43,937 nucleotides of DNA from Planctomycetota bacterium (GTDB taxonomy: Bacteria > Planctomycetota > PUPC01): positions 1 to 43,937 of the forward strand of contig PWKM01000150.1 in assembly GCA_003559755.1 (NCBI GenBank). The letters run 5' to 3'. Position 1 is the first letter of the stretch; every line of letters begins with the position of its first letter. Below are positions 8,488 through 39,775 of the stretch, in pieces. The notes beneath the pieces were generated by a model. The model was not told the DNA's origin. It did no database searches and saw nothing but the letters and a program-made list of their open reading frames with translations. A program made the translations under genes and the position numbers.

Positions 8488-8543
8488 CTCACCAGATGCA
8501 GGAAAAATTACCTCCCCCGGCCATTTTCCGAACGGCGAGTTCT

Positions 8544-9221
8544 CTAAGAAAGCTCCTTCACCACCAGGTGGCACACCCCGTCGATATTGGCAAAAGGCCG
8601 AACGCCTTCAAATTCAAACGTCTTGTATTCGACACTATGGATGCTTTTGAAACCGCATTTCCTGTGGCATTGGAGCGATGCCGGGCCGGTACATTCCGAT
8701 GCGGCAAGCCGGTAACCGCGCGGTCGGGCCTCCTCGAGCGTCTCCCCCAGCAGCCGCGTTGCAATGCCGAGCCCTTCATAACCTGACGCAACCCCGATTG
8801 CGGATATGTGGAGGCATTCTCCCTTCGCCGGCGAGTATTGTTCCTCCATAGGCCGCCTGAGCTCTTTCAGGAAGCCCTCCAGCGGCGGGACTTTCGTCAG
8901 CTCCTGGGCGGTCAATCCCTCTGGCGGCTCGGCTGGGTCCTGTTCGCGTATATCCGACGCGATAAGAAAACCTACGGGGCCGGTCGCATCCTCCTGGATG
9001 GACGCCTTGAGCCAGAGTTCTCTCTGTTGAGGCCGGTCGCCCGGTCGCAAGTACATAAGTCTTGCGATGGCGATGATCCGTTCTTCGGGAAACCCCAACC
9101 ACCTTGTCAGGGGTTCGCTCTGGCAGAATATCCCGGCGTACAGCCGGAGCACGTCGCCGATGTCCTCCGGCTCCACCGCCGAGATCACGTATCTTGGCGC
9201 ATCGCGTTTTGGCGCGTCCAT
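8544..9221 (-). CDS. GNAT-family N-acetyltransferase
   Basis: 225 aa. Acetyl-CoA-binding-type motif ISAIGVASGYEGLGIATRLLGETLEEAR followed by HRKCGFK. Only 3 nt separate its start from the upstream gene's stop codon. Confidence 0.8.
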   Translation of the reverse strand: MDAPKRDAPRYVISAVEPEDIGDVLRLYAGIFCQSEPLTRWLGFPEERIIAIARLMYLRPGDRPQQRELWLKASIQEDATGPVGFLIASDIREQDPAEPPEGLTAQELTKVPPLEGFLKELRRPMEEQYSPAKGECLHISAIGVASGYEGLGIATRLLGETLEEARPRGYRLAASECTGPASLQCHRKCGFKSIHSVEYKTFEFEGVRPFANIDGVCHLVVKELS

Positions 9222-12030: not shown

Positions 12031-12458
12031 TGAACTTCAGGCAGGTCTTCGAGGAGCGGCAGGAATCGTTTCAGCTCGCTCCGATGATCGACATCGTGTT
12101 CCTCCTGCTGATCTTTTTCATCCTCAGCGGCGTGCGGGCACAGGAGGCGGAACTGCCGATGGACCTGCCCGGTGCATCCGCCTCGGTCGAACGGCGTCAC
12201 GAGCCGGAGGAAGTGGTGGTCAATGTGGCCCGGGACGGTACGCTGGTCGTCGATAACGCGGTGGTAACTGTTGACGACCTCCAGAAGAAGCTGAACATTT
12301 TGCACCGGTCGGTCACCCGCCCGGTATCTGTTGTGGTACGGGCACACCCGAGGGCCGAGCACCAATCGGTGCTCAACGTCCTGAACGCCTGTGCCGCCGC
12401 CGGCATCACCAAAGTGTCATTTGTGACGAGAGATGAGCGAACCAGGCAGCCCGGTTAA
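12027..12458 (+). CDS. exbD: ExbD/TolR biopolymer transport protein
   Basis: QLAPMIDIVFLLLIFFIL TM carrying the conserved Asp, plus a periplasmic domain (VVVNVARDGTLVVDNAVV...VVVRAHPRAEHQSVLNVLNACAAAGI). The likely ATG at 12030 overlaps the exbB TGA by 1 nt (TGATG). Confidence 0.9.
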   Translation: MMNFRQVFEERQESFQLAPMIDIVFLLLIFFILSGVRAQEAELPMDLPGASASVERRHEPEEVVVNVARDGTLVVDNAVVTVDDLQKKLNILHRSVTRPVSVVVRAHPRAEHQSVLNVLNACAAAGITKVSFVTRDERTRQPG

Positions 12459-12474
12459 CCGAAAACGTGGTCCG

Positions 12475-15036: not shown

Positions 15037-15061
15037 CACGCCGGAGGCCGAATCGAGGGCG

Positions 15062-16807: not shown

Positions 16808-16824
16808 GGGCGGGGAGAACCATC

Positions 16825-17370
16825 ATGAAGCGAAAGTGGTCGGTCCTGTTGCTGACGGTCGTACCCGGTCTCGGCCACATTTACGCCGGCCGCCAGTGGC
16901 GGGGGCTCCTTCTCTTCGGCCTGTTCGCCATCGCGATCAACGGCTATGTCGCCGGCACCGAGATGACACGGTCGGAGAACCGGACTATCCGCGAACGGGG
17001 CCGGCAGGTCCGTGTGGCGTGTACCGTCGTGGCGGTCGGGGTGTGGATATTCGCCCTGGTTGACATCGCACGCCTGTCGAAGCAGTTCGAATCGAAGCCG
17101 CGTCGCGAGCGGAAGGACTACCATTTCAAGCGCGGCCTGCACCACTACCTCGCCGGAACATTCGAGAGCGCCCGGGGCGAGTTCCTCACCGTGCTGAAGC
17201 TGGACTCGATGGACGCCGACGCCCGCTACTACCTGGGGATGACCCACCAGGCGCTGGGCAACAAACGCCGGGCGGCAAGGGCGTTCAAACGATGCCTGTC
17301 CGCGGACACCGAGAAAAAATGGAACTGGGAAGCCAAAGCCCAACTGAAGAAAGCCCGGAAAACCGGATAA
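16825..17370 (+). CDS. Small membrane protein with a C-terminal TPR motif
   Basis: ATG 16825 preceded by GGGGAGAA. Two TM helices (WSVLLLTVVPGLGHIYAG...LLLFGLFAIAINGYVAG; VACTVVAVGVWIFALVDIA), then a TPR-like segment (GLHHYLAGTFESARGEFLTVLKLDSMDADARYYLGMTHQALGNKRRAARAFKRCL). Confidence 0.7.
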   Translation: MKRKWSVLLLTVVPGLGHIYAGRQWRGLLLFGLFAIAINGYVAGTEMTRSENRTIRERGRQVRVACTVVAVGVWIFALVDIARLSKQFESKPRRERKDYHFKRGLHHYLAGTFESARGEFLTVLKLDSMDADARYYLGMTHQALGNKRRAARAFKRCLSADTEKKWNWEAKAQLKKARKTG

Positions 17371-23134: not shown

Positions 23135-23335
23135 TCAGGCCTTGAGCTGCTTGTCGGGCTCGTCTTCGACGGCCTCGTTCACCTCATCCTCGACCTCTTT
23201 GAGTCCCTTTTTGAACTCCTGGATGCTCTGCCCGACGCTGCGCATGACCTGGGGGAGCCGGGAGCCGAAGATGAGGAGTGCGACAATGAGGATGATGATC
23301 CATTCGCTGCCGCCGGGAAGTCCAAATGCAAGCAT
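23135..23335 (-). CDS. tatA: Twin-arginine translocase subunit TatA/E
   Basis: MLAFGLPGGSEWIIILIVALLIFGSRLPQVMRSVGQSIQEFKKGLKE plus an acidic tail. AGGAG lies upstream of ATG 23335; the longer ORF-track start at 23428 is unlikely. Confidence 0.88.
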   Translation of the reverse strand: MLAFGLPGGSEWIIILIVALLIFGSRLPQVMRSVGQSIQEFKKGLKEVEDEVNEAVEDEPDKQLKA

Positions 23336-23395
23336 TTCTGATACTCCTTTCGGGGTCGGGCAAGGCCGGGCCGGCCACCCGATCATTCTAACATG

Positions 23396-23424
23396 AGTGT
23401 ATAGCGTGTCGCTCGCCGTGTCAA
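23396..23424 (-). promoter_or_regulatory. Candidate sigma-70 promoter for tatA (TTGACA-N17-TACACT)
   Basis: On the minus strand, TTGACA is at 23424-23419 and TACACT at 23401-23396, about 60 nt upstream of the tatA ATG. Confidence 0.35.
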
Positions 23425-23659
23425 CCATGCGGTCGCCGTTGCCCGGAGAGAGCCCGGACTGGCCGTGTTGTTCGCGATCATTCCGGCCGAACTATCGGCG
23501 TAACTGGTCTGCTCCGCCCGGATTACCGTTCAAGTTTTGCCACGAAACCGTCGATACGTAAATTACCGAGACATCATGCCATGTGCTGTGGCAATCGCCG
23601 GCTGAGAGTTCGGGTGCCCGAACTGGGCAAGCGTGTCGTCTGGGAGAGGAGTCAGGAAT

Positions 23660-24013
23660 ATGATTTGCCATCGCGAGGGATGCAAGCGGACGGTTCCTCC
23701 GGGTCGTCGGAAATATTGTTCGGAAGAATGCAGCAAGATCGTGAATCGACGCAGTGCGGCCGAACGTTCGCGCCGCCGGGCCGAGATGTATCGCCGCCGG
23801 CGTCTGGTCAAATACGCGCCGCGAACCTGCCTCGCCTGCGGTGATGAGTTCAGCTCGGAGGGGCCTTGGAACCGCATCTGCTCGTCCTGCAGCGACAGCA
23901 ACAGCGCGGTCTCGTATTCCCGCTCGCGCGGCAACCATATGAGTTCGCCCGATCCCGATGATGAACTGTTGACGGATAGCGAGCCGGACACGGAGGACAC
24001 GCCGGATTACTGA
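23660..24013 (+). CDS. Small hypothetical protein with two Cys4 zinc-ribbon-like clusters, a basic centre and an acidic tail
   Basis: GGAGAGGAG RBS before ATG 23660. C-x4-C-x12-C-x3-C and C-x2-C-x15-C-x2-C patterns. Followed by a clear intrinsic terminator. Confidence 0.55.
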   Translation: MICHREGCKRTVPPGRRKYCSEECSKIVNRRSAAERSRRRAEMYRRRRLVKYAPRTCLACGDEFSSEGPWNRICSSCSDSNSAVSYSRSRGNHMSSPDPDDELLTDSEPDTEDTPDY

Positions 24014-24044
24014 GGGCCGGGGCTCCCCCGAATTTCGATCACCA

Positions 24045-24075
24045 GGGTCTGCCTGCGGGCAGGCCCTTTTCTATT
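24045..24075 (+). terminator. Rho-independent terminator after the zinc-ribbon gene
   Basis: GGGTCTGCC-TGCG-GGCAGGCCC forms a 9-bp stem with one G-U pair, followed by TTTTCTATT. It sits between convergent genes. Confidence 0.6.
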
Positions 24076-25738
24076 CGGTATCCGGTTCCGGCGGCCGCGT
24101 GAGGAGGCGGGCGTCCGACCATCCGAGTTCGTTGCAGAGATCGACGACGCGCACCACCCATCGGTAGAGTGTTGCCGGCTCGGGCTGGATGGTGACCTGG
24201 ACATCGTCGGCGGTTCGTCGCAGGCCCGCGATGTATGTGAGGCGCTCGCGGAGCCAGATCAGGTCCCCGGTCTCGGAGGGATCACTTTCCGACAGGGTGA
24301 CGGTCACGGGCGGGATTTGGGCGGGGTGGCCGTCGCTGACGCCGATGTGGATATGTATCCGTTCGATGCGTGCCGGCCTCTCGACGTCGCGTCTGGCGAG
24401 CGGACCGCGGTTCCAGTCCAGGCGCAGGGCCATGTGATCGCGTGTTCTCACCTCGAGGGGTTCATGCGTCGCTCCCTCGATCACTTTCGTCTCGGCCGGT
24501 TCTGCTTCCTGGATGGCGTGGAACACTTCGGCCAGTTGCAGTGCGGTCGTATCCTCGTCGATGATGACGGAGAATCCCTTGTCCGAATCGCCCTCTTGCC
24601 AGAGGGTTGCCAGTTCTTGTGCGGTGACCCGTGCGCCGTCGATCTGGATACGGTTTTCCTGGAGCTCGGCGGTCAGACCGACCTCGAGGTCTTCCTTGAG
24701 TCGGACGGTTTCGAGCGATTCGACCTGTATGCCGCTCCGGTGGATGGCATCGAACGCCCGGTATATTGCGTCGGGCGGCGCCCCGTGGTCGATTGTGATG
24801 CGGAGCGAGTCTTCGTCCTCTTTGTCCCGAATATCTCGAAGTGTGTCGAGCAGGAACATCGGTTCGCGCTCGTTGAGCAGCACGCGCCCGCCCCGGGTGA
24901 TGTCCATGTGGATGACCTGGCCCCCGAACTCGTTTTTGGGGGGCGGTTCCGGCAGTTCGGCGGGTTTGATGATGAGGGTGACCTCGGTGCCTACCGGCGG
25001 GACGACGTCGGTGTTGACGACGAACGCCCGGTCGTCGGCCCCGATTTCAAGCGGGAGGTCAAGCACGGACATCGGGTCACGGAACACGGTGACCACGGAT
25101 AGCTCGCGGTTCGCCCAGTAGATTTCCCTTCCGGTCTGGGGCTCCTGGACAAATCGGCTGCCCAGGAATACGTAATGGGTTCGGCACATCAGCCGTTGGT
25201 CGATCTGGTTCCAGACCAGGTCTTCCGAGCGGTACGTCTTGGGGCCGTCCTCGGTCTCGAACCGGACGTAGATGTTCACCGGGTCCCCGGAGGGGGCATG
25301 CTCGGGGTCCCCCTGGAATCGCGGCCCGGCGTCGGCCGGTGCGGGCTTCAGCCCGAGGGCAAGCAGGAACATATGGAGGTCGCTCGGCTGGAGGTCGAGC
25401 GCGATGATGCTCTCGTATTCTTTGCCGCCGCGTGCACAGGCGAGCAGTTCGATGGGGCCTTCATCCAGGCAGATTTCCCCGTCGACCTCGATGCGTCTCT
25501 CCTCGGGGTAAAGCCGCGCCCCGCGCCTGCTGATGACCTTCCGGTCGGCGATTTCGGGCAGGGCTTCGGGGTCCTCGATCTCTTCCCGCTCGACGATGTC
25601 ATCCGCTTCGGGCGCCTCGTCGGCGTTCGCGGAGCCGGCCCAGATGGCCGGGGCCAGGGCGGCAAGAATGAGAGCAACGGCAAGGCGGGGTCCCATCCGC
25701 AAGAATGTCAACTTTCGGGCTGAATTTAACGTTCTCAT
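24071..25738 (-). CDS. Secreted protein: YdjY-like N-terminal domain followed by three ExbD-periplasmic-domain-like repeats
   Basis: Signal peptide (LAVALILAALAPAIWAGSANA). YdjY-like segment (EVDGEICLDEGPIELLACARGGKEYESIIALDLQPSDLHMFLLALGL). Three segments fit the ExbD C-domain pattern (e.g. IHMDITRGGRVLLNE...LRITIDHGAPPDAIYRAFDAIHRSGIQ; VQVTIQPEPATLYRWVVRVVDLCNELGW). It is the last gene of the TPR-exbBDD operon. Confidence 0.7.
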   Translation of the reverse strand: MRTLNSARKLTFLRMGPRLAVALILAALAPAIWAGSANADEAPEADDIVEREEIEDPEALPEIADRKVISRRGARLYPEERRIEVDGEICLDEGPIELLACARGGKEYESIIALDLQPSDLHMFLLALGLKPAPADAGPRFQGDPEHAPSGDPVNIYVRFETEDGPKTYRSEDLVWNQIDQRLMCRTHYVFLGSRFVQEPQTGREIYWANRELSVVTVFRDPMSVLDLPLEIGADDRAFVVNTDVVPPVGTEVTLIIKPAELPEPPPKNEFGGQVIHMDITRGGRVLLNEREPMFLLDTLRDIRDKEDEDSLRITIDHGAPPDAIYRAFDAIHRSGIQVESLETVRLKEDLEVGLTAELQENRIQIDGARVTAQELATLWQEGDSDKGFSVIIDEDTTALQLAEVFHAIQEAEPAETKVIEGATHEPLEVRTRDHMALRLDWNRGPLARRDVERPARIERIHIHIGVSDGHPAQIPPVTVTLSESDPSETGDLIWLRERLTYIAGLRRTADDVQVTIQPEPATLYRWVVRVVDLCNELGWSDARLLTRPPEPDTE

Positions 25739-25806: not shown

Positions 25807-26325
25807 TCAGCCGTCTGGCGGGTCACGTGGGAGCGACCTTCTGGAGGCGGCAAAATTGACCTCCTGGAACCCTTCGCCGCGACATATGGCGACGGCCTTG
25901 ATGACCCATCTGTACTTGACGGCGGGTTCGACCTCGAGTATGACCGGTACATTCTCCCGGACCTGCGGGTCCTGGGCGTGCTTGGCGATTTCCTGGTGGA
26001 GCGTTCTGAGTCCACCGAGCACGGTCCGATCGACATCGATTTGGATGCCGTCGTCCGGCGCGCGGGTCACCTCGTATGTCGGCTCCGCCTCGGGGTCCCC
26101 TCCCCGTGTGCGGATCGTCACCCTGATCTCCGGTTCGATCTCGGCCACGGTCAGTTGGTCGGGCGGGCCGGCCTCCTGGGGCAGGTAGGCCTCGAGCTCG
26201 CCCTCGGGGACGCGGAAGCGGGTGACCACGAAGAAGAAGATCAACAACTGGAACACGATGTCGATCATCGGGGTCATCTGGAGCTTTGAGTCTTCGCCCG
26301 CATTCATGCCTCGCAGGAACTTCAT
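25807..26325 (-). CDS. exbD: ExbD/TolR biopolymer transport protein (paralogue 2)
   Basis: LQMTPMIDIVFQLLIFFFVV TM with the conserved Asp, plus a periplasmic domain (VPVILEVEPAVKYRWVIKAVAICRGEGF). Confidence 0.9.
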   Translation of the reverse strand: MKFLRGMNAGEDSKLQMTPMIDIVFQLLIFFFVVTRFRVPEGELEAYLPQEAGPPDQLTVAEIEPEIRVTIRTRGGDPEAEPTYEVTRAPDDGIQIDVDRTVLGGLRTLHQEIAKHAQDPQVRENVPVILEVEPAVKYRWVIKAVAICRGEGFQEVNFAASRRSLPRDPPDG

Positions 26326-26329
26326 ATCT

Positions 26330-26836
26330 TTATCCCTCTGCCAATCGAACGCTGAACGACATTTTATAGAATCGCATCCGGGCCGCCCGTTCCATCACGT
26401 CCTGAACGGTCCGCCATTCGACGTTTCTGTCCGCCTGGACCAGGATGGGCTGTTCGGATGGTTCGTCCCCCAGCCCCCTGTACTGCCGTTCGACGCGGAA
26501 GTACCTGAGGACCTGGTCCCTGGCCTCGGCCCCCGACTCTCTGAGGTCGTACATCTGCTGTACGCGGCCCTGGATATAGACGGTGTCCATCATCCTGACC
26601 TGGCCGTCTGCAGGGTCAACGCGCTCGCGGGGGATGATGCTGATGATAATCCTGTCGGGGATATTCGTCTCTTCCCGTGCCTGGGCGGCGTAGGGGAGTT
26701 CGAGTCCCTCGATGTGGTCATAGGAGATGATTTCCGAGACCACCAGGAAGAAGATGAGGAGCAGGAACACCACGTCGATCATCGGCGTGAGGTTCATCTC
26801 CAGCTCTTCTGGATGAAATCGCTTGGTGACGTGCAT
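26330..26836 (-). CDS. exbD: ExbD/TolR biopolymer transport protein (paralogue 1)
   Basis: MNLTPMIDVVFLLLIFFLVV TM with the conserved Asp. Its stop lies 4 nt from the start of the next exbD. Confidence 0.9.
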   Translation of the reverse strand: MHVTKRFHPEELEMNLTPMIDVVFLLLIFFLVVSEIISYDHIEGLELPYAAQAREETNIPDRIIISIIPRERVDPADGQVRMMDTVYIQGRVQQMYDLRESGAEARDQVLRYFRVERQYRGLGDEPSEQPILVQADRNVEWRTVQDVMERAARMRFYKMSFSVRLAEG

Positions 26837-26842
26837 GGTGTG

Positions 26843-27610
26843 CTACTCCACAGGTCGGAATCGGGCCATCAGTTCGCCGCTGATGGCGCCCACTTCCAGA
26901 ACGATCTTCTGGACGCGGTTTTTGAAGAACTGGTAGATGCACATAACCGGGATGGCGACGATGAGGCCGAGGAACGTGGTGACCAGTGCGAGCTGGATGT
27001 TTTGTGCGAGGTCGGCCGGTTTCGGGGGGACGTCCGGGTTTGCGATGGCTGCGAACGCACGGATCATGCCGAGCACGGTCCCCAGCAGCCCGAGCATGGG
27101 CGAGATGTTGGCGATGAGTGAGAGGTAGCTGATCTTCTGTTGCAGATCGACTGCGGCCTCTTCTCCCGCCTCGCTCATTGCCTCTTCCATCTGCTTATAA
27201 CCGGCGTTCACCCGGGAGAGGCCGGCTGCGATCACGTTACTGAAGAAGGTCGGCTGTTCCTCGCAGACCATGATGGCCTCCTCATACTCCTCCTGCTCGA
27301 AGCATTCTTCGACATCGGCGAGCAGTTCCGGCGGCATGATTACGCCGCGCCGGATGGTCAGCCCGTGCTCGATGGCCAGGGCGATGGATATGAGGAACAG
27401 GAAGATGATGATGTAGCCGATCAGCCCACCGGCCTGGATGACCTCCAACACGCTCATCGTCTCGGTTGGGTCTTCCTCCGGCTCGGCCGCGGGCGCCGGC
27501 TCCTCGGCCGCCTCAGCGACCATCACGACCGGGGCGCAGAGAAGCAGAACGGCTATTATCAGGATGATGGCGAATGGCTTCCAGCTTCCGGCCCTCCAAC
27601 AATCAGGCAT
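26843..27610 (-). CDS. exbB: MotA/TolQ/ExbB proton-channel protein with N-terminal signal peptide and acidic Pro-rich linker
   Basis: AAGGAGAG RBS 8 nt before ATG 27610. Core motifs: GGLIGYIIIFLFLISIALAIEHG, ISPMLGLLGTVLGMIRAF, ALVTTFLGLIVAIPVMCIYQFFKNR. Confidence 0.9.
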   Translation of the reverse strand: MPDCWRAGSWKPFAIILIIAVLLLCAPVVMVAEAAEEPAPAAEPEEDPTETMSVLEVIQAGGLIGYIIIFLFLISIALAIEHGLTIRRGVIMPPELLADVEECFEQEEYEEAIMVCEEQPTFFSNVIAAGLSRVNAGYKQMEEAMSEAGEEAAVDLQQKISYLSLIANISPMLGLLGTVLGMIRAFAAIANPDVPPKPADLAQNIQLALVTTFLGLIVAIPVMCIYQFFKNRVQKIVLEVGAISGELMARFRPVE

Positions 27611-27699
27611 ACCAGATCTCTCCTTAAAACGAGCCACAATTTCGGGGCCGATGGCTTTTTGGCATCGTGCCCCACGAATTCATTATCCGGTCGATCCGC

Positions 27700-28842
27700 T
27701 CAGCCGCCCAGTTCTCTGAGGCCGGTCCTCGCGTCATCGACCACATCGCTGTCCGGAAAATTCTCGATCAATTCTCGATAGAGGCGACGTGCCCGGGTCC
27801 TGGCGGCGGGGCCGCCGATCTCGACCGAGGCCGTTGCCGCGCCGAACATCGCTTTTGGCCTTTCTCTGCGCGCCTCTGGGTATAGTATATAAACTCTCAT
27901 GTAGGAAAGCACGGCCTGGTTCAGATTAACCTTCTTCTCCGTCTCGTCCTCAGCCCGGCGGCCGGCCTCGAAATGGAGATCGCCCAGTGCCATGTACAGG
28001 CGGAGGCGGTTGGCCCTCTCGGTAATTCTGTCCTCGATGCTGTCGATCCACCGGGTGGCATCGTCCGCCCGCCCGAGGTCGACGAGTACCTGGCCCTTCC
28101 CCACCAGCGCCCGCTGGTAGATATTGCGCACCTGGTCGAGATCGTGTTCCAGGTCGCCCGGGTTTCGGAGTGTCTGTCCGATGTCGTTGACCAGACGCTC
28201 ATAGATGCCCATCGCTTCCTCTTGATTTTCGACTATCAGATGGGCCTCTGCCTGGCCTTCCAGGGCCACGAGCTCCCAGAGCGGGCCATGTTCTGCCATC
28301 TTCCGGTAGGTCTCGATCGCCTGTTCGTGCTGACCGAGTTCGCGGTGGGCCCGGGCCTTGGCTTGAATGGCTTCGAGAACGTAGAAGGAATTGGGGTGTT
28401 CGTCCAATACGACATCGAACTTTTCCAGGGACTCCTCGGCTTTGCCCGTCTCGAGCAGGATTCGCCCGAGGATGACCGCCCTGTATGGCTGATACCAGAA
28501 GCTTCGCGGTTCCGGTTCCACCCCACGCTCGATGAGCGCGAGCGCTCGTTCCCATTCTCCGTCTTCCACCTGCCGGATGGCCTGGGCGAACTGGCGGGCA
28601 TCGCCCCAACCGATCTCTACCACTTCGCGGGATGGGACGGTCTGGATCTCGGCTTGCCTTTCCTGGAAAGCGCGGTAGGCGACGTGCTCGGTTGTGGCTT
28701 CGGTGACGGTAATCTGGCGGACTCTGCTTCCATCGCGTCGGGTGATCGTGTCCGGCATCCTTGGGTCTTCCGCTGCGGCTGCATCGGGGATCGTCAGCCC
28801 GACAACAAGGCCCAGCACGGCTATGCTGAGTAGATATCGCAT
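27700..28842 (-). CDS. Secreted TPR-repeat protein (380 aa)
   Basis: AGGAGG RBS (28851-28856) before ATG 28842. Signal peptide MRYLLSIAVLGLVVGLTIPDAAAA. TPR-like repeats (e.g. FYVLEAIQAKARAHRELGQHEQAIETYRKM). The upstream extension of the ORF to 29079 overlaps the preceding gene and is rejected. Confidence 0.8.
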   Translation of the reverse strand: MRYLLSIAVLGLVVGLTIPDAAAAEDPRMPDTITRRDGSRVRQITVTEATTEHVAYRAFQERQAEIQTVPSREVVEIGWGDARQFAQAIRQVEDGEWERALALIERGVEPEPRSFWYQPYRAVILGRILLETGKAEESLEKFDVVLDEHPNSFYVLEAIQAKARAHRELGQHEQAIETYRKMAEHGPLWELVALEGQAEAHLIVENQEEAMGIYERLVNDIGQTLRNPGDLEHDLDQVRNIYQRALVGKGQVLVDLGRADDATRWIDSIEDRITERANRLRLYMALGDLHFEAGRRAEDETEKKVNLNQAVLSYMRVYILYPEARRERPKAMFGAATASVEIGGPAARTRARRLYRELIENFPDSDVVDDARTGLRELGG

Positions 28843-28858
28843 GGTTGTGGCCTCCTGT

Positions 28859-31800
28859 CTATTGCAGTTTGGTCTTGAGTTCTCTGGCGCGTTCCCGGAC
28901 CTGTTCTTCGTCGGCCCGTTCGATGACCGAATCGATGAACCTGATGAACGTCTCCTGGCCTCCGGCCAGTTCGGGGTCCAGCTCGCGGGCTCTCTCGATG
29001 GCATCCAGAGCACTGCCGTAGTTGTGGCTCTCGATTTCGTCGCGGGCATCGGCCGCCCTGATCCTGACCAGCAAGGCACGCGCCCTGTCCTGTTCCTCGC
29101 CCGGTTCGCTGCGGTTGTAGACCTCCCGGACCACGGATGCCAGCCGGCTGCGAATCTCGGGGCCGCCGAGGGATGGTTCGCCGGCCGCTCGCCGCCGAAT
29201 GACCCGGAGGTTATCGCTGTATCGACCGTCCAGGTTCCAGAGTTCCGCGATGGTTGCGACCACGTCCCACCAGTCTTCGGAATAGGGTGTCAGCCGCCTC
29301 AGAAGTTCGGTGCAATGTTCGAGTGCCTCGTTGAGATAAGCATCGGACCCGGGGGCGAGTTGTTGAGCCGCCTTCGCGAGGTGGAGGCGGGTCGTCGCCC
29401 AGTAGGGCGGAGGGGTTGCGTCTTCATCGTGCTGCAGGCGGCGGTTGTATATTTCGTCGAGCCGGTCGTACTGTTCCTTGAGTTCGATGTATGCTTCCTC
29501 ATACTGGCCGGTGTGGTAGTACGCCGTGCCCAGCAGGATGCGGGCCCTTTCGAGCTGCACCTGTTGGGTCCTTGTGAGGAGCGGGTCGCCCTCGAACCGT
29601 TCGAGGAAGAGTTCCAGGAACGGGAGCCCCTCGTTCAGGCGGTCCTGGCGATGGAATTCGCCGACTGCCCAGTACAGCGTCTCGTAGGGCTGTTCGGGAT
29701 TCCTGTTGATCATCGCGGTCACGATGTCGAGGGCCCGGTTGGCCGACTGGGAAGCGATGTCGCGTTTTTCTTGGATTTGCTCCCGGAGCCCTCTCCGTTC
29801 AGCGGGTTCCTCGGCCTGTTCCGCCTGTGCCTCGAGCTCTTGTGCTTCGCTTCGGGATGTCCGGGCGTTTGCAGCGTGAGCACGGAACCGTGCTTCGTCC
29901 GCCGCTCTCAGCAGCCGCTCTCCCTGGGGCTGTCTCTCCTCGTCCATCTCCAGGACGACCCGTTCCAACTGGGCATAGGCGTCTTCCGCATCGTCCAGGA
30001 GTTCCAGTCGTACCAGCGCCTGTACGCGATAGTAGCTGACGGCCGGATGGTAGACAGCGGCATCGGGGAACCGTCCGACGAAGTTCTCGGTCAGTTCGAG
30101 ATAGGCCTCGTAATCCTCGCGGCCCGGCCAGATATAGATTCGGCTGAGCCCATAGACGGCGGCGGGCATGAGCCGAGCGCGCCGTCGGTTGACGGCGGAA
30201 TAGATCGATTCCTGCTCGGCCCGTTCCATGAACCGCAGAAAATCGGCTTTGGCCTGATCGAGCAAAGAGCTGCTCCGCTGGGGGGCTTCGTTTCGCAACT
30301 GCTGGGCCCAGAGCATCCGTGCCTCGGCGGTCTTCACGATCGCCGCCTCGTAGTAGACCGAGTCCTCGGGGATTTCCGCCAAGCTGGCGACGGCCTCCTC
30401 GAATTCGCTGCTGGCGATGTGTCGGAGGGCGTCCTCGTACATCCGGGGCTCGCCTCCAAACGTCTCGAGGAACCAGTTCCTGACCCATTGGTACAGCAGT
30501 TCGTCGGCTTCGTCCCCGGTCGCGTCCCGCTGCTGCCGGAGCATCAGGCGGGCCAGCCGGCCGTAGGTCTCCTCCTGCTCTCCGCCTTTGCCCGAGGAGA
30601 CGATGTGGCGGTAGACGGTGAATGCCTCGTGGAACATGTTTTCCTGGCGGTAGGCCATTGCCAGGAGTTGGAAGGCCGTTGTGCGTTGTTCGGAGGTAAT
30701 CTGGTCGCCGAACTCCAGAAGCTGCGGGATGAGGCGGATCAGGGCTTCGTTGTCGCGCGCCCGATGTGCTTCGGAGATCTGGCGCATGACGGCTCGCGGC
30801 CCCATGCCGTCGAGTCCATACCGCTGGCGGAGCGAGATGGCCTGCCCTTCCCACTGGGGATGCTGCTCGGAGAGGCGCTCCAGCAGGGTGTTGGCCCGTT
30901 CCTGTGCTTCTTCCGCCCGTTCTTCCCGGCCGCCTTCACGCAGGCGACTGGCGAGCATCAGGATGAGTTCTCCCCGGGCAATCAGGGCCTCCGGCATCTC
31001 GATGCCATCGAGGTACCGGATGGCCTCTTCGATTTTTTCGCTGTCCTGGTTGGCCATGGCCAGTGCCCGGACCGCCTTCGTCCGATGCTCCCACAACCTG
31101 AGCTCGTCGGTGAGCTGCGGAACAGATTCCATTGCGTCCTCGATGAGGAGCAGGTTCATTTCTGCGCTTCGTTGGGCCTGTCTGTAATCTTCGGCGGCGA
31201 GGTATGCCCGGGACAGGGTCAACTGTCCGATGATGGTCTCGCCACGCAGCCCGTATTCAGGGCAGAGGATTTCGAGGTGCTCAATGGTCTTTTGCAGCAG
31301 TTCATTTCGCCGTTCGGTCTCTCTGGGGGGGAGTGCCTGATAGTAGGCGAACCTTGTGCGGTTGAGTTCATAGCCGGCGTTGGCGTGCTTGCCCTGCAGC
31401 TCGCCGAGTATTCTCAGCCACTCTTGCAGTTGGGCTCGGTCGTCCGGTCGTTGTTTCTCGTGTTCTTCCAGCGCCTGGGCCGCCACATCAGTAAGCCGTT
31501 CCAGCCCCTCAATCGCGCGTTCGAAGGCCTGGGACATCCTCTGGAGGAGTTGATCCCGCTGGTCACCGCTGGCCACTGCGGCCCGATTGGCATATTGCTC
31601 GGCCTGGGCGCGCAGGCGGAGAAACTCGGCGACAGTCCCCACTCTTGCCGAAGGGTCCAACTCTTCCAGTTCCGCACTGTACCGATCGACGTATTCCTGG
31701 TGACGGGCGCGTTTGGCATCCGCCTCGGCGCTGGACAGGTGCCCGTGGACGGCGCCGGCAAACTCCCGATGGGCGGCGAGAAGGGCGTTCAGGGCCTTGG

Positions 31801-31987
31801 CCCGCTGGCCCTCGTCTTCAATCTCGTCCAGGCGATTCTCGAGCACCTCGATGCCCAGATCGGGGAAACCGCGCTCGACGAGGCCGGCCCCAAAATCGAT
31901 ATCTTCGTCAAGTGGCGCTGCCGCTGCCGACGACGCCATAAGCCCGGCCAGGAGTAGAGCAGAACTCAATGTGATAACCAATCGCAT
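28859..31987 (-). CDS. Secreted giant TPR-repeat protein (1042 aa)
   Basis: AGGAG RBS. Signal peptide MRLVITLSSALLLAGLMASSAAAAP. Helical-repeat composition rich in Ala/Leu/Glu/Arg/Tyr throughout. GC3-rich codons in this frame, whereas the 1087-aa antisense ORF is Gly/Pro/Arg-rich shadow. Confidence 0.85.
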   Translation of the reverse strand: MRLVITLSSALLLAGLMASSAAAAPLDEDIDFGAGLVERGFPDLGIEVLENRLDEIEDEGQRAKALNALLAAHREFAGAVHGHLSSAEADAKRARHQEYVDRYSAELEELDPSARVGTVAEFLRLRAQAEQYANRAAVASGDQRDQLLQRMSQAFERAIEGLERLTDVAAQALEEHEKQRPDDRAQLQEWLRILGELQGKHANAGYELNRTRFAYYQALPPRETERRNELLQKTIEHLEILCPEYGLRGETIIGQLTLSRAYLAAEDYRQAQRSAEMNLLLIEDAMESVPQLTDELRLWEHRTKAVRALAMANQDSEKIEEAIRYLDGIEMPEALIARGELILMLASRLREGGREERAEEAQERANTLLERLSEQHPQWEGQAISLRQRYGLDGMGPRAVMRQISEAHRARDNEALIRLIPQLLEFGDQITSEQRTTAFQLLAMAYRQENMFHEAFTVYRHIVSSGKGGEQEETYGRLARLMLRQQRDATGDEADELLYQWVRNWFLETFGGEPRMYEDALRHIASSEFEEAVASLAEIPEDSVYYEAAIVKTAEARMLWAQQLRNEAPQRSSSLLDQAKADFLRFMERAEQESIYSAVNRRRARLMPAAVYGLSRIYIWPGREDYEAYLELTENFVGRFPDAAVYHPAVSYYRVQALVRLELLDDAEDAYAQLERVVLEMDEERQPQGERLLRAADEARFRAHAANARTSRSEAQELEAQAEQAEEPAERRGLREQIQEKRDIASQSANRALDIVTAMINRNPEQPYETLYWAVGEFHRQDRLNEGLPFLELFLERFEGDPLLTRTQQVQLERARILLGTAYYHTGQYEEAYIELKEQYDRLDEIYNRRLQHDEDATPPPYWATTRLHLAKAAQQLAPGSDAYLNEALEHCTELLRRLTPYSEDWWDVVATIAELWNLDGRYSDNLRVIRRRAAGEPSLGGPEIRSRLASVVREVYNRSEPGEEQDRARALLVRIRAADARDEIESHNYGSALDAIERARELDPELAGGQETFIRFIDSVIERADEEQVRERARELKTKLQ

Positions 31988-32312: not shown

Positions 32313-32906
32313 CTACTCTTTCTGTTCAATAATATGTGCGGTGACCAGGACGATCAGGTTATTTCGTGAGATGATCCTGCGACGGCTCCTGAAGAGGCCG
32401 CCAATGAGCGGGAGGTCGCCGAGAATGGGAAGTTTGGCATGCCCCTCAGCGTCGACCGCCTCGGCAAGCCCACCGATGAGCAGCGTCCCGCCGTCGGGCA
32501 CCGATACGGTGGTCATCACCTGCCGGGTGCTGATGGTGGGCAGTTGGACGAACCGCTCGAGAGCTACCGCCAGGCGTTCGTCATCATCATCGTCAACATC
32601 AAGCAAATCGAGGTCCTCACGGGTCGCGAAACCAAAGCGATCTATTTGCTCCGCTACATTGACCTGGGGCCTGAGCTCGAGTGTGATGTATCGGCGGTCG
32701 GCGCTGACGAACGGTTGGACCTCGAGGGTGATGCCGCTGTTGACCTGCCCGATCTCGGGCTGCTCGTCGGCGTCATAACTTCTGACGTAGCTCGTTCTCG
32801 TGGCGATGGTGACGAACGCCCGCTGGGTATTGAAGCAGGTGACGCGCGGTGCGGTCAGGATGTTGCCTCTCTTTTCCTTTCGGACGGCGTTGATGATTGC
32901 CCGAAC
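32313..32906 (-). CDS. Secretin (GspD/PilQ family) C-terminal secretin domain; in-frame continuation of the upstream ORF after a TAG codon
   Basis: My own translation from directly after TAG (32909-32907) reads VRAIINAVRKEKRGNILTAPRVTCFNTQRAFVTIAT...VQLPTISTRQVMTTVSVPDGGTLLIGGL...KLPILGDLPLIGGLFRSRRRIISRNNLIVLVTAHII. These are canonical secretin motifs. No convincing independent start or RBS. Confidence 0.8.
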   Translation of the reverse strand, partial: VRAIINAVRKEKRGNILTAPRVTCFNTQRAFVTIATRTSYVRSYDADEQPEIGQVNSGITLEVQPFVSADRRYITLELRPQVNVAEQIDRFGFATREDLDLLDVDDDDDERLAVALERFVQLPTISTRQVMTTVSVPDGGTLLIGGLAEAVDAEGHAKLPILGDLPLIGGLFRSRRRIISRNNLIVLVTAHIIEQKE

Positions 32907-34910: not shown

Positions 34911-36299
34911 TTACTCCGGTCGCATCTGGTCCGCCTGGCCGCGAATCTCTTCCATTACATGGGCCGGCCAGAGCACCTTTATACGTCCTCTTTGATCAAT
35001 AAGCAAGGCCTTTGGGTCTCTTCTTTCATATTCGCGTCCCGCTCGAACCCGTACCCACGTCTGCCGGGGCAGAACATCCAGCAGGCGATAGCCGGTGGAG
35101 AAGTCGATCGGCTCATCGAACCGGAGCACCGAGCGACCGGGCCGGCGCTCGACGTGTCGGCTGAGCTGCCAGCCCACCGGCTGGCCCGGTCTGACTGCGA
35201 ATCTCGCCCGTACCTCGACCATCCTCGGCTCGCCGATTTCGTCCTCGCCCTCCTGATCGGGATCGAGATGGGGGACGGTTGTGGTGACGTAGAACGAGGC
35301 GCGGTCGGCGCTGGCCGTGATGAACTCGATCTGGAACGGCTCTTCCACCTGCACGGGCAGAGGCCCGGCCTGTTCACTGGTCACCGTCGGCTCGTCGCCC
35401 GGCCCGAGTTCAACAGCGAACAACACATATTCATAGTCGACGCTCGGGACCAGATCGCGGTCCTGATAGATGAAGGTGCGGTCCTTGAACACGACCGGAT
35501 CGGGCAACGGGGTCTGATCGGCGGCCCGTGTTTCCAGAACGATGCCGTCGGGCGGAACGACCTCGGGGTCGAGGTCGACGTCTTTCACCACCGCCCGAAG
35601 GAGGAGCACGGGGGACTCGTCGCCGGCCCTGCGATACAGCCGATATTCGTGGACCTCGGCGTTTACCGCCTCGGGCTGCCCCCACGAGAGCCGAGCCCGG
35701 GCATCCTGGACCGCGACGGAGAAGCGGGGCGGGCGGGCGATCCTCCGCAGTTCCGGCGGGGCCACAGTGACCGGAACAACCACGATGATCTCGTCGGCCC
35801 TTCGCAACGTGACCTGCGTCCTGCCCGCGGAACGGGGTGTCAGCCGAAGGACCTGCTCGGCCGTGATGATCTGGGCTTCGACGATGTCCGGGTGCTGCAC
35901 ATGGACTGCGGCGTCCCACTCCTGGTCGACCAACTCGACATCTACGGTCTCGTCCGGCTCGTCGAGTGACAGCCGGACTGTTGCGACCTGTCGAGCGTCC
36001 GGGGGTGCGACGGGCCTCTCCGGGGCGGGCAGTTCGACCTGCGACACCTTGATATCGGGCCGGAGTTCGCCGATGGAGGCGGTGAGGTAATCCTTGTCAA
36101 GCGGCGGCATTTCGTAGCTCGACGCTTCCTGTTTCCGGAGCAGGTTCTCGATGCGCGCTTCGACATCCGCCGGCGACACTTCCGGGACGGGTCGAGCCAG
36201 CAGCGCGCGGCCGACAAATACTATGGCAAGCAGTGCCAACAAGGCGACAATCGCCTTGTCGACCACTCGGAAAAGGACGCCTCCTGCTGAACTAGCCAT
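34911..36299 (-). CDS. Bitopic hypothetical protein in the PilP position of the pilus-like cluster (462 aa, FN3-like segment)
   Basis: N-terminal TM (AIVALLALLAIVFVGRALLA). FN3-like ARLSWGQPEAVNAEVHEYRLYRRAGD. Good GC3 coding signal. Located between the PilO-position gene and the secretin. Confidence 0.65.
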   Translation of the reverse strand: MASSAGGVLFRVVDKAIVALLALLAIVFVGRALLARPVPEVSPADVEARIENLLRKQEASSYEMPPLDKDYLTASIGELRPDIKVSQVELPAPERPVAPPDARQVATVRLSLDEPDETVDVELVDQEWDAAVHVQHPDIVEAQIITAEQVLRLTPRSAGRTQVTLRRADEIIVVVPVTVAPPELRRIARPPRFSVAVQDARARLSWGQPEAVNAEVHEYRLYRRAGDESPVLLLRAVVKDVDLDPEVVPPDGIVLETRAADQTPLPDPVVFKDRTFIYQDRDLVPSVDYEYVLFAVELGPGDEPTVTSEQAGPLPVQVEEPFQIEFITASADRASFYVTTTVPHLDPDQEGEDEIGEPRMVEVRARFAVRPGQPVGWQLSRHVERRPGRSVLRFDEPIDFSTGYRLLDVLPRQTWVRVRAGREYERRDPKALLIDQRGRIKVLWPAHVMEEIRGQADQMRPE

Positions 36300-36329
36300 C
36301 TCGTTCTCTTATTCCTGTTTGTCGCTCGA

Positions 36330-38012
36330 CTACCTGCGCAGCCGAACCGTTATAACCAGGTCTCCTGTATCCATCCGTCGCGAGATGGGCACTCGGATCG
36401 TGATGTCACGATCGACCAGAGCGTCCTCCTCGGTGATAATCACTGTGCCCGTCGCCTCCTGGAACCGCTCGGTCTGCAATCCGTCCCGGGCCCGCAAGAG
36501 GGCATATCCGAACTTGAATGCTACGTCGCTCATCGATACCGGGCGGGCCCGGTGTCGAGCGAGGTAATACGTCTGCCAATCGCCCACGGGCTCCGGCAGG
36601 AGGGCCCTCATCTGGCGGACACGTCCTTCGACCGGGACCACTCGGTCCAGGTAGAGGGTGAGGGTGTCATCCACTTCCTCGGCGTCGAGCCGGTCAATGT
36701 CAGCGGTTACGTCCTCGGGCCTCTCAGAATGTCCAAGATACCACCGATCTTCCCATCGCGCAACTATCAGCGGAAATTCGCCGTCGCCGTTCTGGATCAA
36801 GTAGGCCTTTCCGTCCACCAGCGGTACGAGGTAGTCTCTGGTCAGGTCGAAGCGGGCAGACTCTTGGAGCACCTGGCTCACCTCTTCGCGGAACTCCTCG
36901 CGAGCCCGGTCGTGTTCGCCCGTCCACTCCTCTGCGGTCTCGGCGTCTCCGTCGGCCTCATCCCCATCCCCTTCAAGCGATCCGTCGATGTCCTGCAACC
37001 GGCTGCTGAGGGCGGCTTCCATCTCCCATTTCAGGTTGCTGAGGATTCGCTGACGCAGTGGCCGATGGTGTTCGACCGAGAACTGCGTGGCGGTCCGAAG
37101 GTCTCGAATCTGGTTCTCGAGCCAGTCAGAGATCATGGCCCGGGTCTCGAACAGGTTCGTCGGGAAGCTGACCGTGTAGATCGCCGGCAGGAACTCGATG
37201 ATGTCGCAGCCCATGACAACCCGGTATTGGGGAGCTTCTTCCTCGATATCGGACCCGCCGTTGATCCGCTCGATCTCGTAGTTGGTCACCTGCAGGAACT
37301 TGGGGCTGTTGTGTATCTTTTCTATGAGGCGGTTCAGGTCGCGATACGACTGCACGGTGAAGGCCAGGTCGAGCCCGATTGTCTGGACCCAGTCGTGGCT
37401 GACCAGCCCGACGGAGGTGGCCACCAACTGCATGCGTGAGAGTTCCAGGATCAGCGGCGCCCGGTCCGGCTCGGGTCGAGCGACATCAATCATCGCCTCG
37501 ACGGCATACTTGAGCAGCCAGTACTCTCTCTGAAGCATCTGGGCCGCCCGGATGCGCTCCTGGTCCGTCTCGTAGGTATCGCGCATCACTCTGAACTGCA
37601 ACACGGGGCGGTCCGGGGTAGGAAGCATTTGGGCGAGGTGGGCAGCGAGATGCGACATCCTTCGTTCATATTCGACTTCCCACACCCGCCGCTGATCGCG
37701 ATGGAACGGGAGCCGGAACTCGTCAAAAGCTCGATCGAACATCCCCGACCGCGCCGCGAACAGCATCAGCAGTTCGCCGTAATGCCGTTCCCACCGGGTC
37801 CTCTCCTCCGCCGCGCTGCGAACCATTTCCGGGTTGGGGATCTCGGCCCGGGCCTCCCATTTGTCAAGTGTCCCAATCGCCCTCTGGCTCTCACGCTCCA
37901 GGGAGACAATCCTCTCGTCCATCCCTCTGTCAACCATCAGATAGCCGACCGAGAGCGCCACCACGACCAGACCCAGGACGATCCAGAAAAGGTTGTTCTT
38001 GATGAATGCCAT
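36330..38012 (-). CDS. Bitopic hypothetical protein in the PilO position (560 aa; possibly PilO/Amuc_1100-like N-terminal half)
   Basis: N-terminal TM (LFWIVLGLVVVALSVGYLMV) and a coiled-coil. Ferredoxin-like segment LDLAFTVQSYRDLNRLIEKIHNSPKFLQVTNYEIER. Its ATG overlaps the pilMN stop as ATGA (38010-38014). Confidence 0.65.
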   Translation of the reverse strand: MAFIKNNLFWIVLGLVVVALSVGYLMVDRGMDERIVSLERESQRAIGTLDKWEARAEIPNPEMVRSAAEERTRWERHYGELLMLFAARSGMFDRAFDEFRLPFHRDQRRVWEVEYERRMSHLAAHLAQMLPTPDRPVLQFRVMRDTYETDQERIRAAQMLQREYWLLKYAVEAMIDVARPEPDRAPLILELSRMQLVATSVGLVSHDWVQTIGLDLAFTVQSYRDLNRLIEKIHNSPKFLQVTNYEIERINGGSDIEEEAPQYRVVMGCDIIEFLPAIYTVSFPTNLFETRAMISDWLENQIRDLRTATQFSVEHHRPLRQRILSNLKWEMEAALSSRLQDIDGSLEGDGDEADGDAETAEEWTGEHDRAREEFREEVSQVLQESARFDLTRDYLVPLVDGKAYLIQNGDGEFPLIVARWEDRWYLGHSERPEDVTADIDRLDAEEVDDTLTLYLDRVVPVEGRVRQMRALLPEPVGDWQTYYLARHRARPVSMSDVAFKFGYALLRARDGLQTERFQEATGTVIITEEDALVDRDITIRVPISRRMDTGDLVITVRLRR

Positions 38013-39667
38013 CAGATGCCGCCTCCCATCTCCGGACCTTCGACTCGATATGTGCAGGTAACCATAAACTCGATGCCCTCGTCACCCATGCCCGGCGAAT
38101 CATAATCGACCGCTGCCAGGCCCTCTTCGCCCTCGAATGTGCCCGAGACGGCCCGGCGAACGCGAGCGGAATCAACCAGGCCGGTGCCCGGGGCGACGCC
38201 CCGAACACTAAAGCGGATGCTGTACCCATCGCGATCCAGCATGGGTTCGGCATGTATCCTCGTCACCAGAATGTCGATGCCGACCCTCTCCGAATCGCCA
38301 AGACGTTCGATCACCCGGTTGAGCACGTTCTGGGCTTGGGGGACCGCACGGAACCCGTGGCTCAGATCGAGCGGCTGATCGAGCCGACGGCGAGCGTCCT
38401 CGGCCTCCCGCGTCGCCCCGTCGAACTCGTCCGAGATGGACTCGAATTGCTCGTCAATCTGAACGACCTGTTCCTGACTGGCGATCTGCTCCTGCAACTG
38501 CTGCCTCTCCACTTGGCGCGAATAGAGGTTGGCCCCGAAGATCAGGGCGAGGCAGGCGATCCCGGCCGCGGCATAGGGCTTCTTGCTGCTGAGGGTCCGC
38601 CGGCGGATCAGCTCCCGGGGCATCAGGTTGACGCTGACCCGGCCCCGACCGACTCCGTCTAGAGCCAGTCCGATGGCCGGCCCCAGCGACGGCAGCATGT
38701 TCCGCAACTGGGTGCCGTCAACGTCGGGGGCGAGTGTGACCCGCTCGAGTGTGTCGGCGGGAACTTCGCTGCAGTCGAGCTGCTGGATGAAATACTCGCG
38801 TACGCCGGGCAGGCGGAACGTGTTGCCGAGGAGCAGGGCGTCCTCGATCCGCACGTTATGAATCTGCGATTTGAAGAACCCGATCGTGCGCTGTATCTGG
38901 CCCACCAGCTCGTTGAGCGTCGGCTGGGCGAGCTTGAACAGGCGGGCGGCCTGGGCCTTGTCCCGGCATTCGCGCTTGAGGCGCTCGGCCTCCTGGGGGT
39001 CGATCTTCAGCCGTTCGGACAGTGCCCGCGTGATCCCGTTGCCCGACACGGTGATGTTTCGCACGCGGAAGTTCTGGGGGTCACAGATGAGCATGTCGGT
39101 GCTGCCTGCGCCGATGTCGATGATGATGGTGCCACGGGCGACGTCCCGGTCGAACGTCAGATAGTTGTACAGGGCGAGCGGGACGGGGAGTATGGCGGCG
39201 GGCTCGAGCTTGCACAGGCGGAGGTTGGCGAGCAGCGAATAGATGAACTGTGACCGGAGCGAAAAGATCGCCACCTCGGTCTCCTCGCCCGGGGCCGTCT
39301 CCTCACGGACCCGCTGATAATCCCAGACGACTTCATCGATGGGGAACGGGATCTGCTGGCGCGCCTCGTACCGGACCACCTCGGGGATGCGCTTCTCGTC
39401 CACGGGCGGGAGCGGGATAAATCGGCTGAAGGCCGGCTCGGGGATGGAGACGACGAGCGGCGTCTTGCCGAAGTTGTTGCGGGCAGCCAGCGTGGTCACC
39501 GCCTCGCGTAGCTGATAATCCTTATCACCGGTATCGTCAGCCGGGGGCTTCCGCTCGACCACGTCGAACGCGACAATTTCGGCGCCGATGCGTGTACGGC
39601 GCATCTTCACCGCCTTGACCGTGCTCTCCCCGATGTCCAAGCCCCAAGCCACGCGTGCTGTCAACAT
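38012..39667 (-). CDS. PilM (actin-like ATPase fold) :: PilN fusion protein
   Basis: WGLDIGESTVKAVKM and IIIDIGAGSTDMLI are actin-fold phosphate motifs. This is followed by SVNLMPRELIRRRTLSSKKPYAAAGIACLALIFGANLY, the PilN signature plus TM, then a coiled-coil and a periplasmic domain. ATG 39667 is the likely start. Confidence 0.8.
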   Translation of the reverse strand: MLTARVAWGLDIGESTVKAVKMRRTRIGAEIVAFDVVERKPPADDTGDKDYQLREAVTTLAARNNFGKTPLVVSIPEPAFSRFIPLPPVDEKRIPEVVRYEARQQIPFPIDEVVWDYQRVREETAPGEETEVAIFSLRSQFIYSLLANLRLCKLEPAAILPVPLALYNYLTFDRDVARGTIIIDIGAGSTDMLICDPQNFRVRNITVSGNGITRALSERLKIDPQEAERLKRECRDKAQAARLFKLAQPTLNELVGQIQRTIGFFKSQIHNVRIEDALLLGNTFRLPGVREYFIQQLDCSEVPADTLERVTLAPDVDGTQLRNMLPSLGPAIGLALDGVGRGRVSVNLMPRELIRRRTLSSKKPYAAAGIACLALIFGANLYSRQVERQQLQEQIASQEQVVQIDEQFESISDEFDGATREAEDARRRLDQPLDLSHGFRAVPQAQNVLNRVIERLGDSERVGIDILVTRIHAEPMLDRDGYSIRFSVRGVAPGTGLVDSARVRRAVSGTFEGEEGLAAVDYDSPGMGDEGIEFMVTCTYRVEGPEMGGGI

Positions 39668-39775
39668 GCCAACAGACCCACCTAAAAACAGGGAGGAGTT
39701 AGTATTACCGGCAGACAAAGAACCGGAACCCAGAACGAACAAACCAGCTTGCAATTCTTTGTAATAAGCTCCCCC

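Follow-up and report, generated by a model that had tools for sequence, protein, structure and literature searches.

The 43,937-nucleotide stretch of contig PWKM01000150.1 (Planctomycetota bacterium, GenBank assembly GCA_003559755.1), referred to here as the window, encodes a secreted fusion protein, P0001, in which a YdjY domain is joined to three modules homologous to the periplasmic domain of ExbD/TolR, as confirmed by profile comparison. The gene closes an exbB-exbD-exbD proton-motor operon, at the end of a gene block headed by a PilM-secretin cluster, in a genome where no TonB was found. P0001 is tentatively read as a soluble adaptor between the motor and the secretin complex, a proposal that we hold at slightly under an even chance. 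The protein consists, in order, of a signal peptide, an acidic linker, the YdjY domain and three ExbD/TolR-type periplasmic modules without a transmembrane (TM) helix, called here M1, M2 and M3. Its parts are the following, with window coordinates and, where it applies, the predicted local distance difference test (pLDDT) value of the structural model:

24071-25738, minus strand: fusion protein P0001, a stop-free open reading frame (ORF) of 555 amino acids
25622..25738, minus strand: signal peptide, residues 1-39, with h-region LAVALILAALAPAIWA and predicted cleavage between ANA and DE
25538..25621, minus strand: acidic linker, residues 40-67 (orthologue alignment; pLDDT <50)
24959..25504, minus strand: YdjY domain, residues 79-260 (NCBIfam NF040466)
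24692..24928, minus strand: M1, residues 271-349, TM-less ExbD/TolR-type periplasmic domain (hhalign, AlphaFold2)
24479..24691, minus strand: M2, residues 350-420, second ExbD-type domain (hhalign, hidden Markov model (HMM), Pfam on relatives)
24368..24478, minus strand: low-confidence linker, residues 421-457 (pLDDT 29-50)
24092..24367, minus strand: M3, residues 458-549, copy of an ExbD2-type periplasmic domain, with the motif L-Y-R-W-V-V (Pfam ExbD)

Homology of the modules to ExbD and TolR

The original prediction had recognised, by reading sequence patterns, three ExbD periplasmic repeats devoid of TM helix and protonatable Asp, and this view held when the modules were compared as profiles. 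Module alignments were position-restricted and drawn from family members (M1, residues 271-349; M2, 350-420; M3, 436-555), and the reference alignment comprised 28 bona fide ExbDs from the loci of relatives, limited to proteins of <200 amino acids. Against this reference hhalign returned 97.1% for M1 (E 5e-11), 91.7% for M2 (E 7.6e-7) and 98.1% for M3 (E 8e-14), whereas YdjY, ExbB and reversed ExbD, used as controls, reached at most 0.7% with the same profiles. The matches fall on ExbD profile positions ~43-128, which correspond to the periplasmic part and not to the part with the TM helix and Asp.

The Pfam ExbD model (PF02472) passes its gathering threshold (GA) on P0001 only at residues 508-549 (E 4e-6, 27.3 bits against a GA of 25.4); isolated pieces of the protein gave E 0.13 for M1, no match for M2 and E 0.022 for M3. 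The same model does hit every module position in one family member or another. P0082 (2e-17, two stretches) and P0112 are matched at the position of M1, P0019 at that of M3, and P0009, P0012, P0015 and P0005 at that of M2, with scores no lower than GA in these last four.

In the AlphaFold2 model of P0001 each module is folded as beta-beta-alpha-beta-alpha-beta, the same as the four-strand, two-helix fold of the ExbD periplasmic domain (PMC10771500). The mean pLDDT of the model is 73, with values of 80-95 over YdjY-M1-M2 (~80-89 in M1) and lower ones in M3. A Foldseek search with the full model gave, as the sole high-probability hits in the PDB, the periplasmic domains of ExbD (8PEK, 0.98; 8P9R, 0.95) and TolR (5BY4, 0.91), with poor E-values resulting from the long query and with a matched module that cannot be told apart. 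When profiles were run against PDB sequences, in which ExbD is proteobacterial, ExbD chains were among the top hits at non-significant E-values (0.09-1 for the family, 0.7-1.2 for M2 and 0.14-1.2 for M3), and the M1 profile returned no ExbD. Profile and structure comparisons of the sub-domains thus point to ExbD/TolR and not to an unrelated fold.

ExbD and TolR (PF02472; 2PFU, 8PEK, 8P9R, 5BY4) resemble P0001 in their periplasmic domain, to which each module is homologous. They possess a TM helix with its Asp, whereas P0001 strings three copies of the domain together in a single soluble chain, which is fused to YdjY and preceded by a signal peptide. A hydrophobicity scan and the profile matches revealed neither an ExbD-type N-terminal TM helix nor a protonatable TM Asp in P0001, which therefore cannot belong to the proton path.

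Secretion and the N-terminus

The protein had also been described as secreted, with a signal peptide, an acidic linker and then a YdjY-like segment, and this arrangement was recovered. Residues 10-40 form the sole hydrophobic stretch of P0001 and are followed by A-N-A and D-E at the AxA-like cleavage site; elsewhere the 19-residue Kyte-Doolittle mean does not exceed 1.29, hence no TM helix exists beyond the signal peptide. The N-termini of all orthologues have a short, non-conserved h-region and a small-x-small (AxA-like) site, and in their alignment a lipobox Cys is absent from every one. The N-terminus is therefore read as a cleavable Sec signal, and the product as a predicted soluble periplasmic protein. 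The start codon is ambiguous (ATG at 25738, TTG at 25780 or ATG at 25696), and no clear Shine-Dalgarno sequence was seen at any of these three candidates.

The acidic linker is restricted to the lineage of the window and locus L009, according to the orthologue alignment. Proline-rich content in P0001 amounts to just a short PEPPP. Pfam and NCBIfam scans of the protein gave no match besides ExbD and YdjY, with no TonB_C or TolA domain and no VWA.

The gene block

The fusion gene belongs to a block on the minus strand, which includes these genes:

34911..39754, minus strand: PilM(-N)-like protein of 580 amino acids (Pfam PilM_2, 8e-28) and two proteins of 560 and 462 amino acids
32313..34829, minus strand: TPR-headed secretin with an in-frame TAG at 32907-32909 (Pfam Secretin, 1.2e-32, on 32313-32906; TPR_2 on the 640-residue part)
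28859..31987, minus strand: large secreted helical-repeat (TPR-like) protein of 1042 amino acids (faint Pfam TPR matches only)
27700..29079, minus strand: secreted TPR protein, longest ORF 459 amino acids, likely product ~380 amino acids from MRYLL (Pfam TPR families)
26843..27637, minus strand: ExbB/TolQ-type proton channel of 264 amino acids (Pfam MotA_ExbB, 6e-30)
26330..26836, minus strand: ExbD1, 168 amino acids, with TM helix and Asp (TPMIDVVF; Pfam ExbD, 2e-17)
25807..26325, minus strand: ExbD2, 172 amino acids, with TM helix and Asp (TPMIDIVF; Pfam ExbD, 2.9e-16)

The PilM-led trio heads the block, and the 560- and 462-residue proteins beside PilM had no match in a Pfam scan. Gaps are 4-6 nucleotides between the motor genes and 26-110 nucleotides before the fusion gene. 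No terminator-like site was found on the minus strand inside the block, and a strong hairpin lies at 24044-24067, between the fusion gene and a convergent gene. The placement of the fusion as the terminal gene of an exbB-exbD-exbD operon was correct: the three motor genes lie directly upstream on the same strand, and both ExbDs have their TM Asp. In the window the TAG codon at 32907-32909 splits the secretin gene, leaving the Secretin domain in the 197 codons past the stop; the secretin is one continuous ORF in loci L011, L013, L015, L016 and L049.

A second motor operon was found 7 kb from the fusion gene:

11005-17370, plus strand: IPT/TIG-ExbB, ExbD, TPR, VWA protein and small TPR (Pfam)

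The VWA protein is a separate gene of this operon, at 15014-16807.

Absence of TonB and presence of other machines

TonB_C and Plug domains were searched in the genome of the window, which is 90% complete, and neither was found. With positive controls included, TonB_C and the barrel of TonB-dependent transporters occurred in 0/10 genomes of the same taxonomic family, and no TonB-like anchored protein is encoded in the operon of the fusion gene. These results agree with the original prediction that TonB is missing. The genome contains seven ExbD matches. A description of the secretin block as 'pilus-less' was not upheld, as seven T2SSE-type ATPase matches occur elsewhere in the genome; the PilM...secretin cluster may thus belong to a conventional machine of the pilus type, with ATPases encoded at other loci.

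Conservation of the neighbourhood

The linkage of orthologues to exbBD was kept in all 11 window-type loci (the window, L009-L016 and L049/L050), with exbB-exbD-exbD-fusion on one strand in each. Two TPR genes lie upstream in every such locus that reaches far enough; the gene at 27700..29079 has a counterpart in all orthologous loci, and that for the 1042-residue protein is kept upstream in seven (L009-L011 and L013-L016). The secretin gene is also present in L011, L013-L016 and L049. The second motor operon immediately follows the fusion gene in L012-L015 and L049, and the two motor operons form one supercluster in several relatives.

A sister subfamily of architecture YdjY-M1-tail is more numerous, and its gene comes directly after PilM-X-X-secretin, a gene order common to its loci and the window block. 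No exbBD genes were found within 10 kb of the sister-subfamily genes in L023, P0016, P0030, P0029 and P0044, and probably none near P0040; one genome of this secretin-adjacent type has tandem exbD pairs elsewhere. The deepest and most widely conserved linkage of the family is therefore to the secretin, in the form of the PilM...secretin cluster, and not to the motor.

The P0082 gene is located 4 kb from a divergent TPR-TPR-exbB-exbD-exbD block. Altogether, 18/18 loci with a module-bearing relative, representing 15 distinct proteins (16 counting the window), adjoin either a secretin gene or an exbB-exbD-exbD block. In the loci examined, YdjY-only proteins are near an exbBD block only at L026, and next to a secretin at none. 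The L026 case (4059-8660) is a YdjY-only protein of 382 amino acids from a Phycisphaerae metagenome-assembled genome, encoded divergently ~1.6 kb from an exbB-exbD-exbD-TPR block. Linkage of YdjY-domain proteins to exbBD was thus seen in window-type loci and does not extend to the sister subfamily, which is tied to PilM...secretin, or to the unlinked YdjY-only proteins.

In four sister-subfamily loci the fusion gene is followed by a gene for a protein of 236-262 amino acids (L047, 11386-12096; L052, 11260-11982; L053, 3001-3759; L054, 4375-5163). The translated products from L047, L052 and L053 are polytopic membrane proteins without a match in the window, and the downstream genes of L047, L052 and L054 carry no recorded Pfam family.

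History of the modules

Sequence comparisons show that M1 and M2 are mutually homologous and make up an ancient tandem pair: an M1-only HMM matches M2 segments, down to E 2.6e-8, and hhalign of M1 against M2 gave 96%. The order M1-M2-M1-M2 occurs in four representatives of 560-580 amino acids and in L014, hence duplication involved the pair as a unit.

M3 arose later, as a copy of the periplasmic domain encoded just upstream by the ExbD2-type gene. It matched the HMM of the ExbD2 class (the second exbD of these operons, ~172 amino acids) at E 1.5e-13, with 99.4% by hhalign against 2.7% for the ExbD1 class, and phmmer searches from M3 returned ExbD2-type genes only. By BLASTP, M3 and the ExbD2 of the window are 28% identical over 98 amino acids, the whole periplasmic domain (E 6e-8), and no match was obtained between M3 and the ExbD1 of the window. 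In M3-bearing lineages (the window at 26330-26836, minus strand, L009 and L010), ExbD1 has two periplasmic insertions of ~13 and ~11 amino acids that are missing in M3-less lineages. As M3 and these insertions probably reflect a single evolutionary event, they constitute weak evidence of co-adaptation.

Architectures were counted in the best 163 representatives at 50% identity. YdjY-only proteins account for 78, followed by YdjY-M1 with a non-ExbD-like tail of ~80 amino acids (37), YdjY-M1-M2 (13), M3-bearing proteins (5) and proteins with a doubled M1-M2 pair (4). The module count is 2-4 where exbBD is in cis and one in the subfamily right after the secretin. The possibility that the ~80-residue tail of that subfamily is a diverged M2 was ruled out by hhalign (<=3%). 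A literature search found no paper describing a YdjY-ExbD-domain architecture; databases already label both domains.

The YdjY domain

NCBIfam NF040466 matched P0001 at E 8.1e-33, and its score of 113.6 bits exceeds the cut-off of 50; the match covers positions 6-181 of the 181 in the profile. The Pfam family PF27149 'YdjY' is precomputed on P0001 homologues. The signature in P0001 is G-P-I-E-L-L-x-C-x-x-G-G-K-E-Y-E-S. In an alignment of 37 sequences, the residues conserved throughout the family are the G-G-K-E-Y-E-S block and scattered Gly, Trp and Asp. A catalytic reading with Cys and His was dropped: C101 and H122 are invariant in close orthologues only and not in this alignment.

An AlphaFold2 model of the domain, made from the same alignment, had a pLDDT of 95.6 and a predicted template modelling score of 0.91. 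Foldseek searches with it identified no fold relative in the PDB (best E 0.27, probability <=0.12) or in BFVD. YdjY domains were matched in 160/201 sampled genomes of the phylum, and the domain is single-copy in the window's genome, where the genome-wide search recovered an identical span. YdjY is thus a widespread periplasmic domain whose predicted fold has no structural relative in the PDB or BFVD.

Escherichia coli YdjY (b1751; NF040466, PF27149) shares with P0001 a signal peptide followed by the beta-rich domain of ~180 amino acids that bears the GGKEYES signature. It is, like most relatives, an uncharacterised single-domain protein; unlike P0001, neither it nor those relatives showed linkage to exbBD or a secretin at the loci examined. 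No functional study turned up in a literature search on YdjY that included the E. coli protein.

P0001 as a possible soluble adaptor

In the explanation that we favour, P0001 would be a subunit, soluble and periplasmic, of an envelope machine that works without TonB and is composed of the PilM...secretin module, two secreted TPR scaffolds and the ExbB-ExbD1-ExbD2 proton motor. The periplasmic domain of ExbD is a strand-swapped dimer. On opening, the dimer accepts a strand from a partner, as it does in clamping a TonB strand between its protomers, and it makes transient contact with peptidoglycan (PMC10771500, PMC10907165). Through such strand capture and homotypic contact, the anchor-less modules could dock on the periplasmic domains of ExbD1 and ExbD2 by the same homotypic interface, with M3 mimicking ExbD2; or M1-M2 might pair as an ExbD-like pseudo-dimer, able to capture a strand of a partner. 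The YdjY head would bind the secretin, one of the TPR scaffolds or else the cell wall, and the secretin-first synteny suggests that this head or M1 serves the secretin module. P0001 would in this way tie the periplasmic end of the motor to the secretin complex, either by transmitting force or by positioning or gating the motor.

Direct dealings with the motor end are suggested by three features: the derivation of M3 from ExbD2, the larger number of modules where exbBD is in cis, and the operon's lack of an anchored transducer. The status of M3 as a specific copy of the ExbD2 periplasmic domain adds weight to a pairing with the membrane ExbDs. Docking on the ExbD periplasmic domains, as an output element or as a regulator, had been suggested before and is plausible. 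An output element substituting for TonB, as in the original prediction, is too narrow a reading, because P0001 has neither a membrane anchor nor an SHLS-type helix.

Several points weigh against the adaptor. The TonB/TolA route requires a TM helix on the rim of ExbB and is barred to a soluble protein, and the docking to ExbD is purely inferential. M1 and M2 have strongly diverged from ExbD, as seen in their own Pfam results and in the non-significant PDB profile comparisons, and the ExbD dimer interface may be lost in them; the M3 region of the AlphaFold2 model is of low confidence. Several other ExbBD sets and type IV pilus-type ATPases are present in these genomes, and therefore the secretin need not be motor-driven. 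The sister subfamily does without exbBD in cis, which makes the secretin module, rather than the motor, a possible ancestral partner.

Comparison with known systems does not provide a ready equivalent. TonB and TolA are likewise encoded with an ExbB/ExbD-type motor, and the ExbD periplasmic domain is the docking site of TonB; P0001 has no anchor helix, no Pro-rich rod and no TonB_C or TolA C-terminal domain. In published clusters of the Planctomycetes-Verrucomicrobia-Chlamydiae (PVC) group, of the form TPR-tolQ-tolR-tolR-X, the last slot is taken by a proposed vWA force transducer, which is anchored and has a TonB/TolA motor-binding helix (Mol Biol Evol 2025, PMC12204202). The P0001 gene occupies the same last slot, downstream of a TPR gene, a tolQ/exbB-like one and a heterologous tolR/exbD-like pair, and both arrangements occur in TonB-less PVC genomes. 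The anchor, the SHLS/His motif, the long disordered domain II and the vWA head of these transducers are all absent from P0001, a soluble ExbD-domain protein; its N-terminus, LAVALILAALAPAIWAGSANA, has no His and is not conserved among orthologues. Secretin partners of type IV pili and type II secretion systems (PilP, TsaP and FimV-type proteins) resemble P0001 as periplasmic products of the gene after the secretin in a PilM...secretin cluster. No sequence or fold relation between them and P0001 was found, and YdjY and ExbD-like domains are not known from them.

The strongest rival, in our estimate rather unlikely, is that P0001 serves the secretin complex as a cell-wall tether or spacer, with modules that bind peptidoglycan, a YdjY head that binds the secretin or alignment proteins and no contact with the motor; its role would be like that of AMIN, LysM or TsaP-type elements of other secretins. 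The oldest and widest synteny, PilM-X-X-secretin-fusion without exbBD, argues for such a tether, as do the peptidoglycan interaction of ExbD/TolR periplasmic domains (PMC10771500) and the secretin itself, which is TPR-headed and in whose scanned parts Pfam detected no peptidoglycan-binding domain. The recent and specific origin of M3 from the neighbouring ExbD2 and the higher module number where exbBD is in cis fit contact with the motor better.

A stronger form of the adaptor proposal, an 'ExbD extension', is unlikely: the modules would join the ExbD1/ExbD2 dimer and YdjY would grip the secretin or a TPR protein, such that the TonB-less motor acts mechanically on the secretin.

We consider it quite improbable that P0001 is a regulator or decoy whose modules compete with the ExbD1-ExbD2 dimer, or take hold of the 'motor box' strand in the vWA transducer, a TolA/TonB-like protein, that the second operon encodes, thereby holding the motor closed or switching its output. 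The mimicry of ExbD2 by M3 would suit this role, as would the capture of a transducer strand by ExbD dimers (PMC10907165) and the position of the fusion gene between motor operons in L012-L015 and L049 (exbB-exbD-exbD-fusion ... TIG-exbB-exbD-TPR-vWA). A decoy would need neither a conserved YdjY head of 190 amino acids nor linkage to a secretin, and the subfamily with one module lacks exbBD in cis. Least probable is a periplasmic binding protein or enzyme acting through YdjY, with the ExbD-like domains as a generic alpha/beta scaffold and a meaningless neighbourhood: YdjY-only proteins are indeed common and unlinked to exbBD or secretins (almost half of the representatives, Poribacteria loci, E. 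coli) and the domain is widespread in the phylum, but every module-bearing locus adjoins a secretin or exbB-exbD-exbD, whereas among YdjY-only proteins just that of L026 is near exbBD and none is next to a secretin.

All known or proposed motor outputs are, to our knowledge, membrane-anchored, namely TonB, TolA, GltG/J and the vWA transducers. The adaptor proposal bears on how proton motors of the 5:2 ExbBD/TolQR type deliver work without TonB or TolA. Since its motor-derived domains lack an anchor and are conserved beside motor and secretin, P0001 offers a concrete, clonable handle on communication between motor and secretin, on the role of YdjY and on ExbD periplasmic domains as free docking modules. 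Were P0001 a wall tether only, it would still give the first context-based clue to YdjY function.

Genes downstream of the fusion

A small Cys-rich ORF resembling a double zinc ribbon, without a Pfam match, is located at 23633-24013 on the plus strand, convergent to the fusion gene. A TatA/E gene (Pfam, 2e-14) lies past it, at 23135-23428 on the minus strand, ~640 bp downstream of the fusion gene. A counterpart of the Cys-rich ORF, 60-94% identical, is found at the corresponding place in L009 and L012-L016, and L049 has an ORF of comparable size there.

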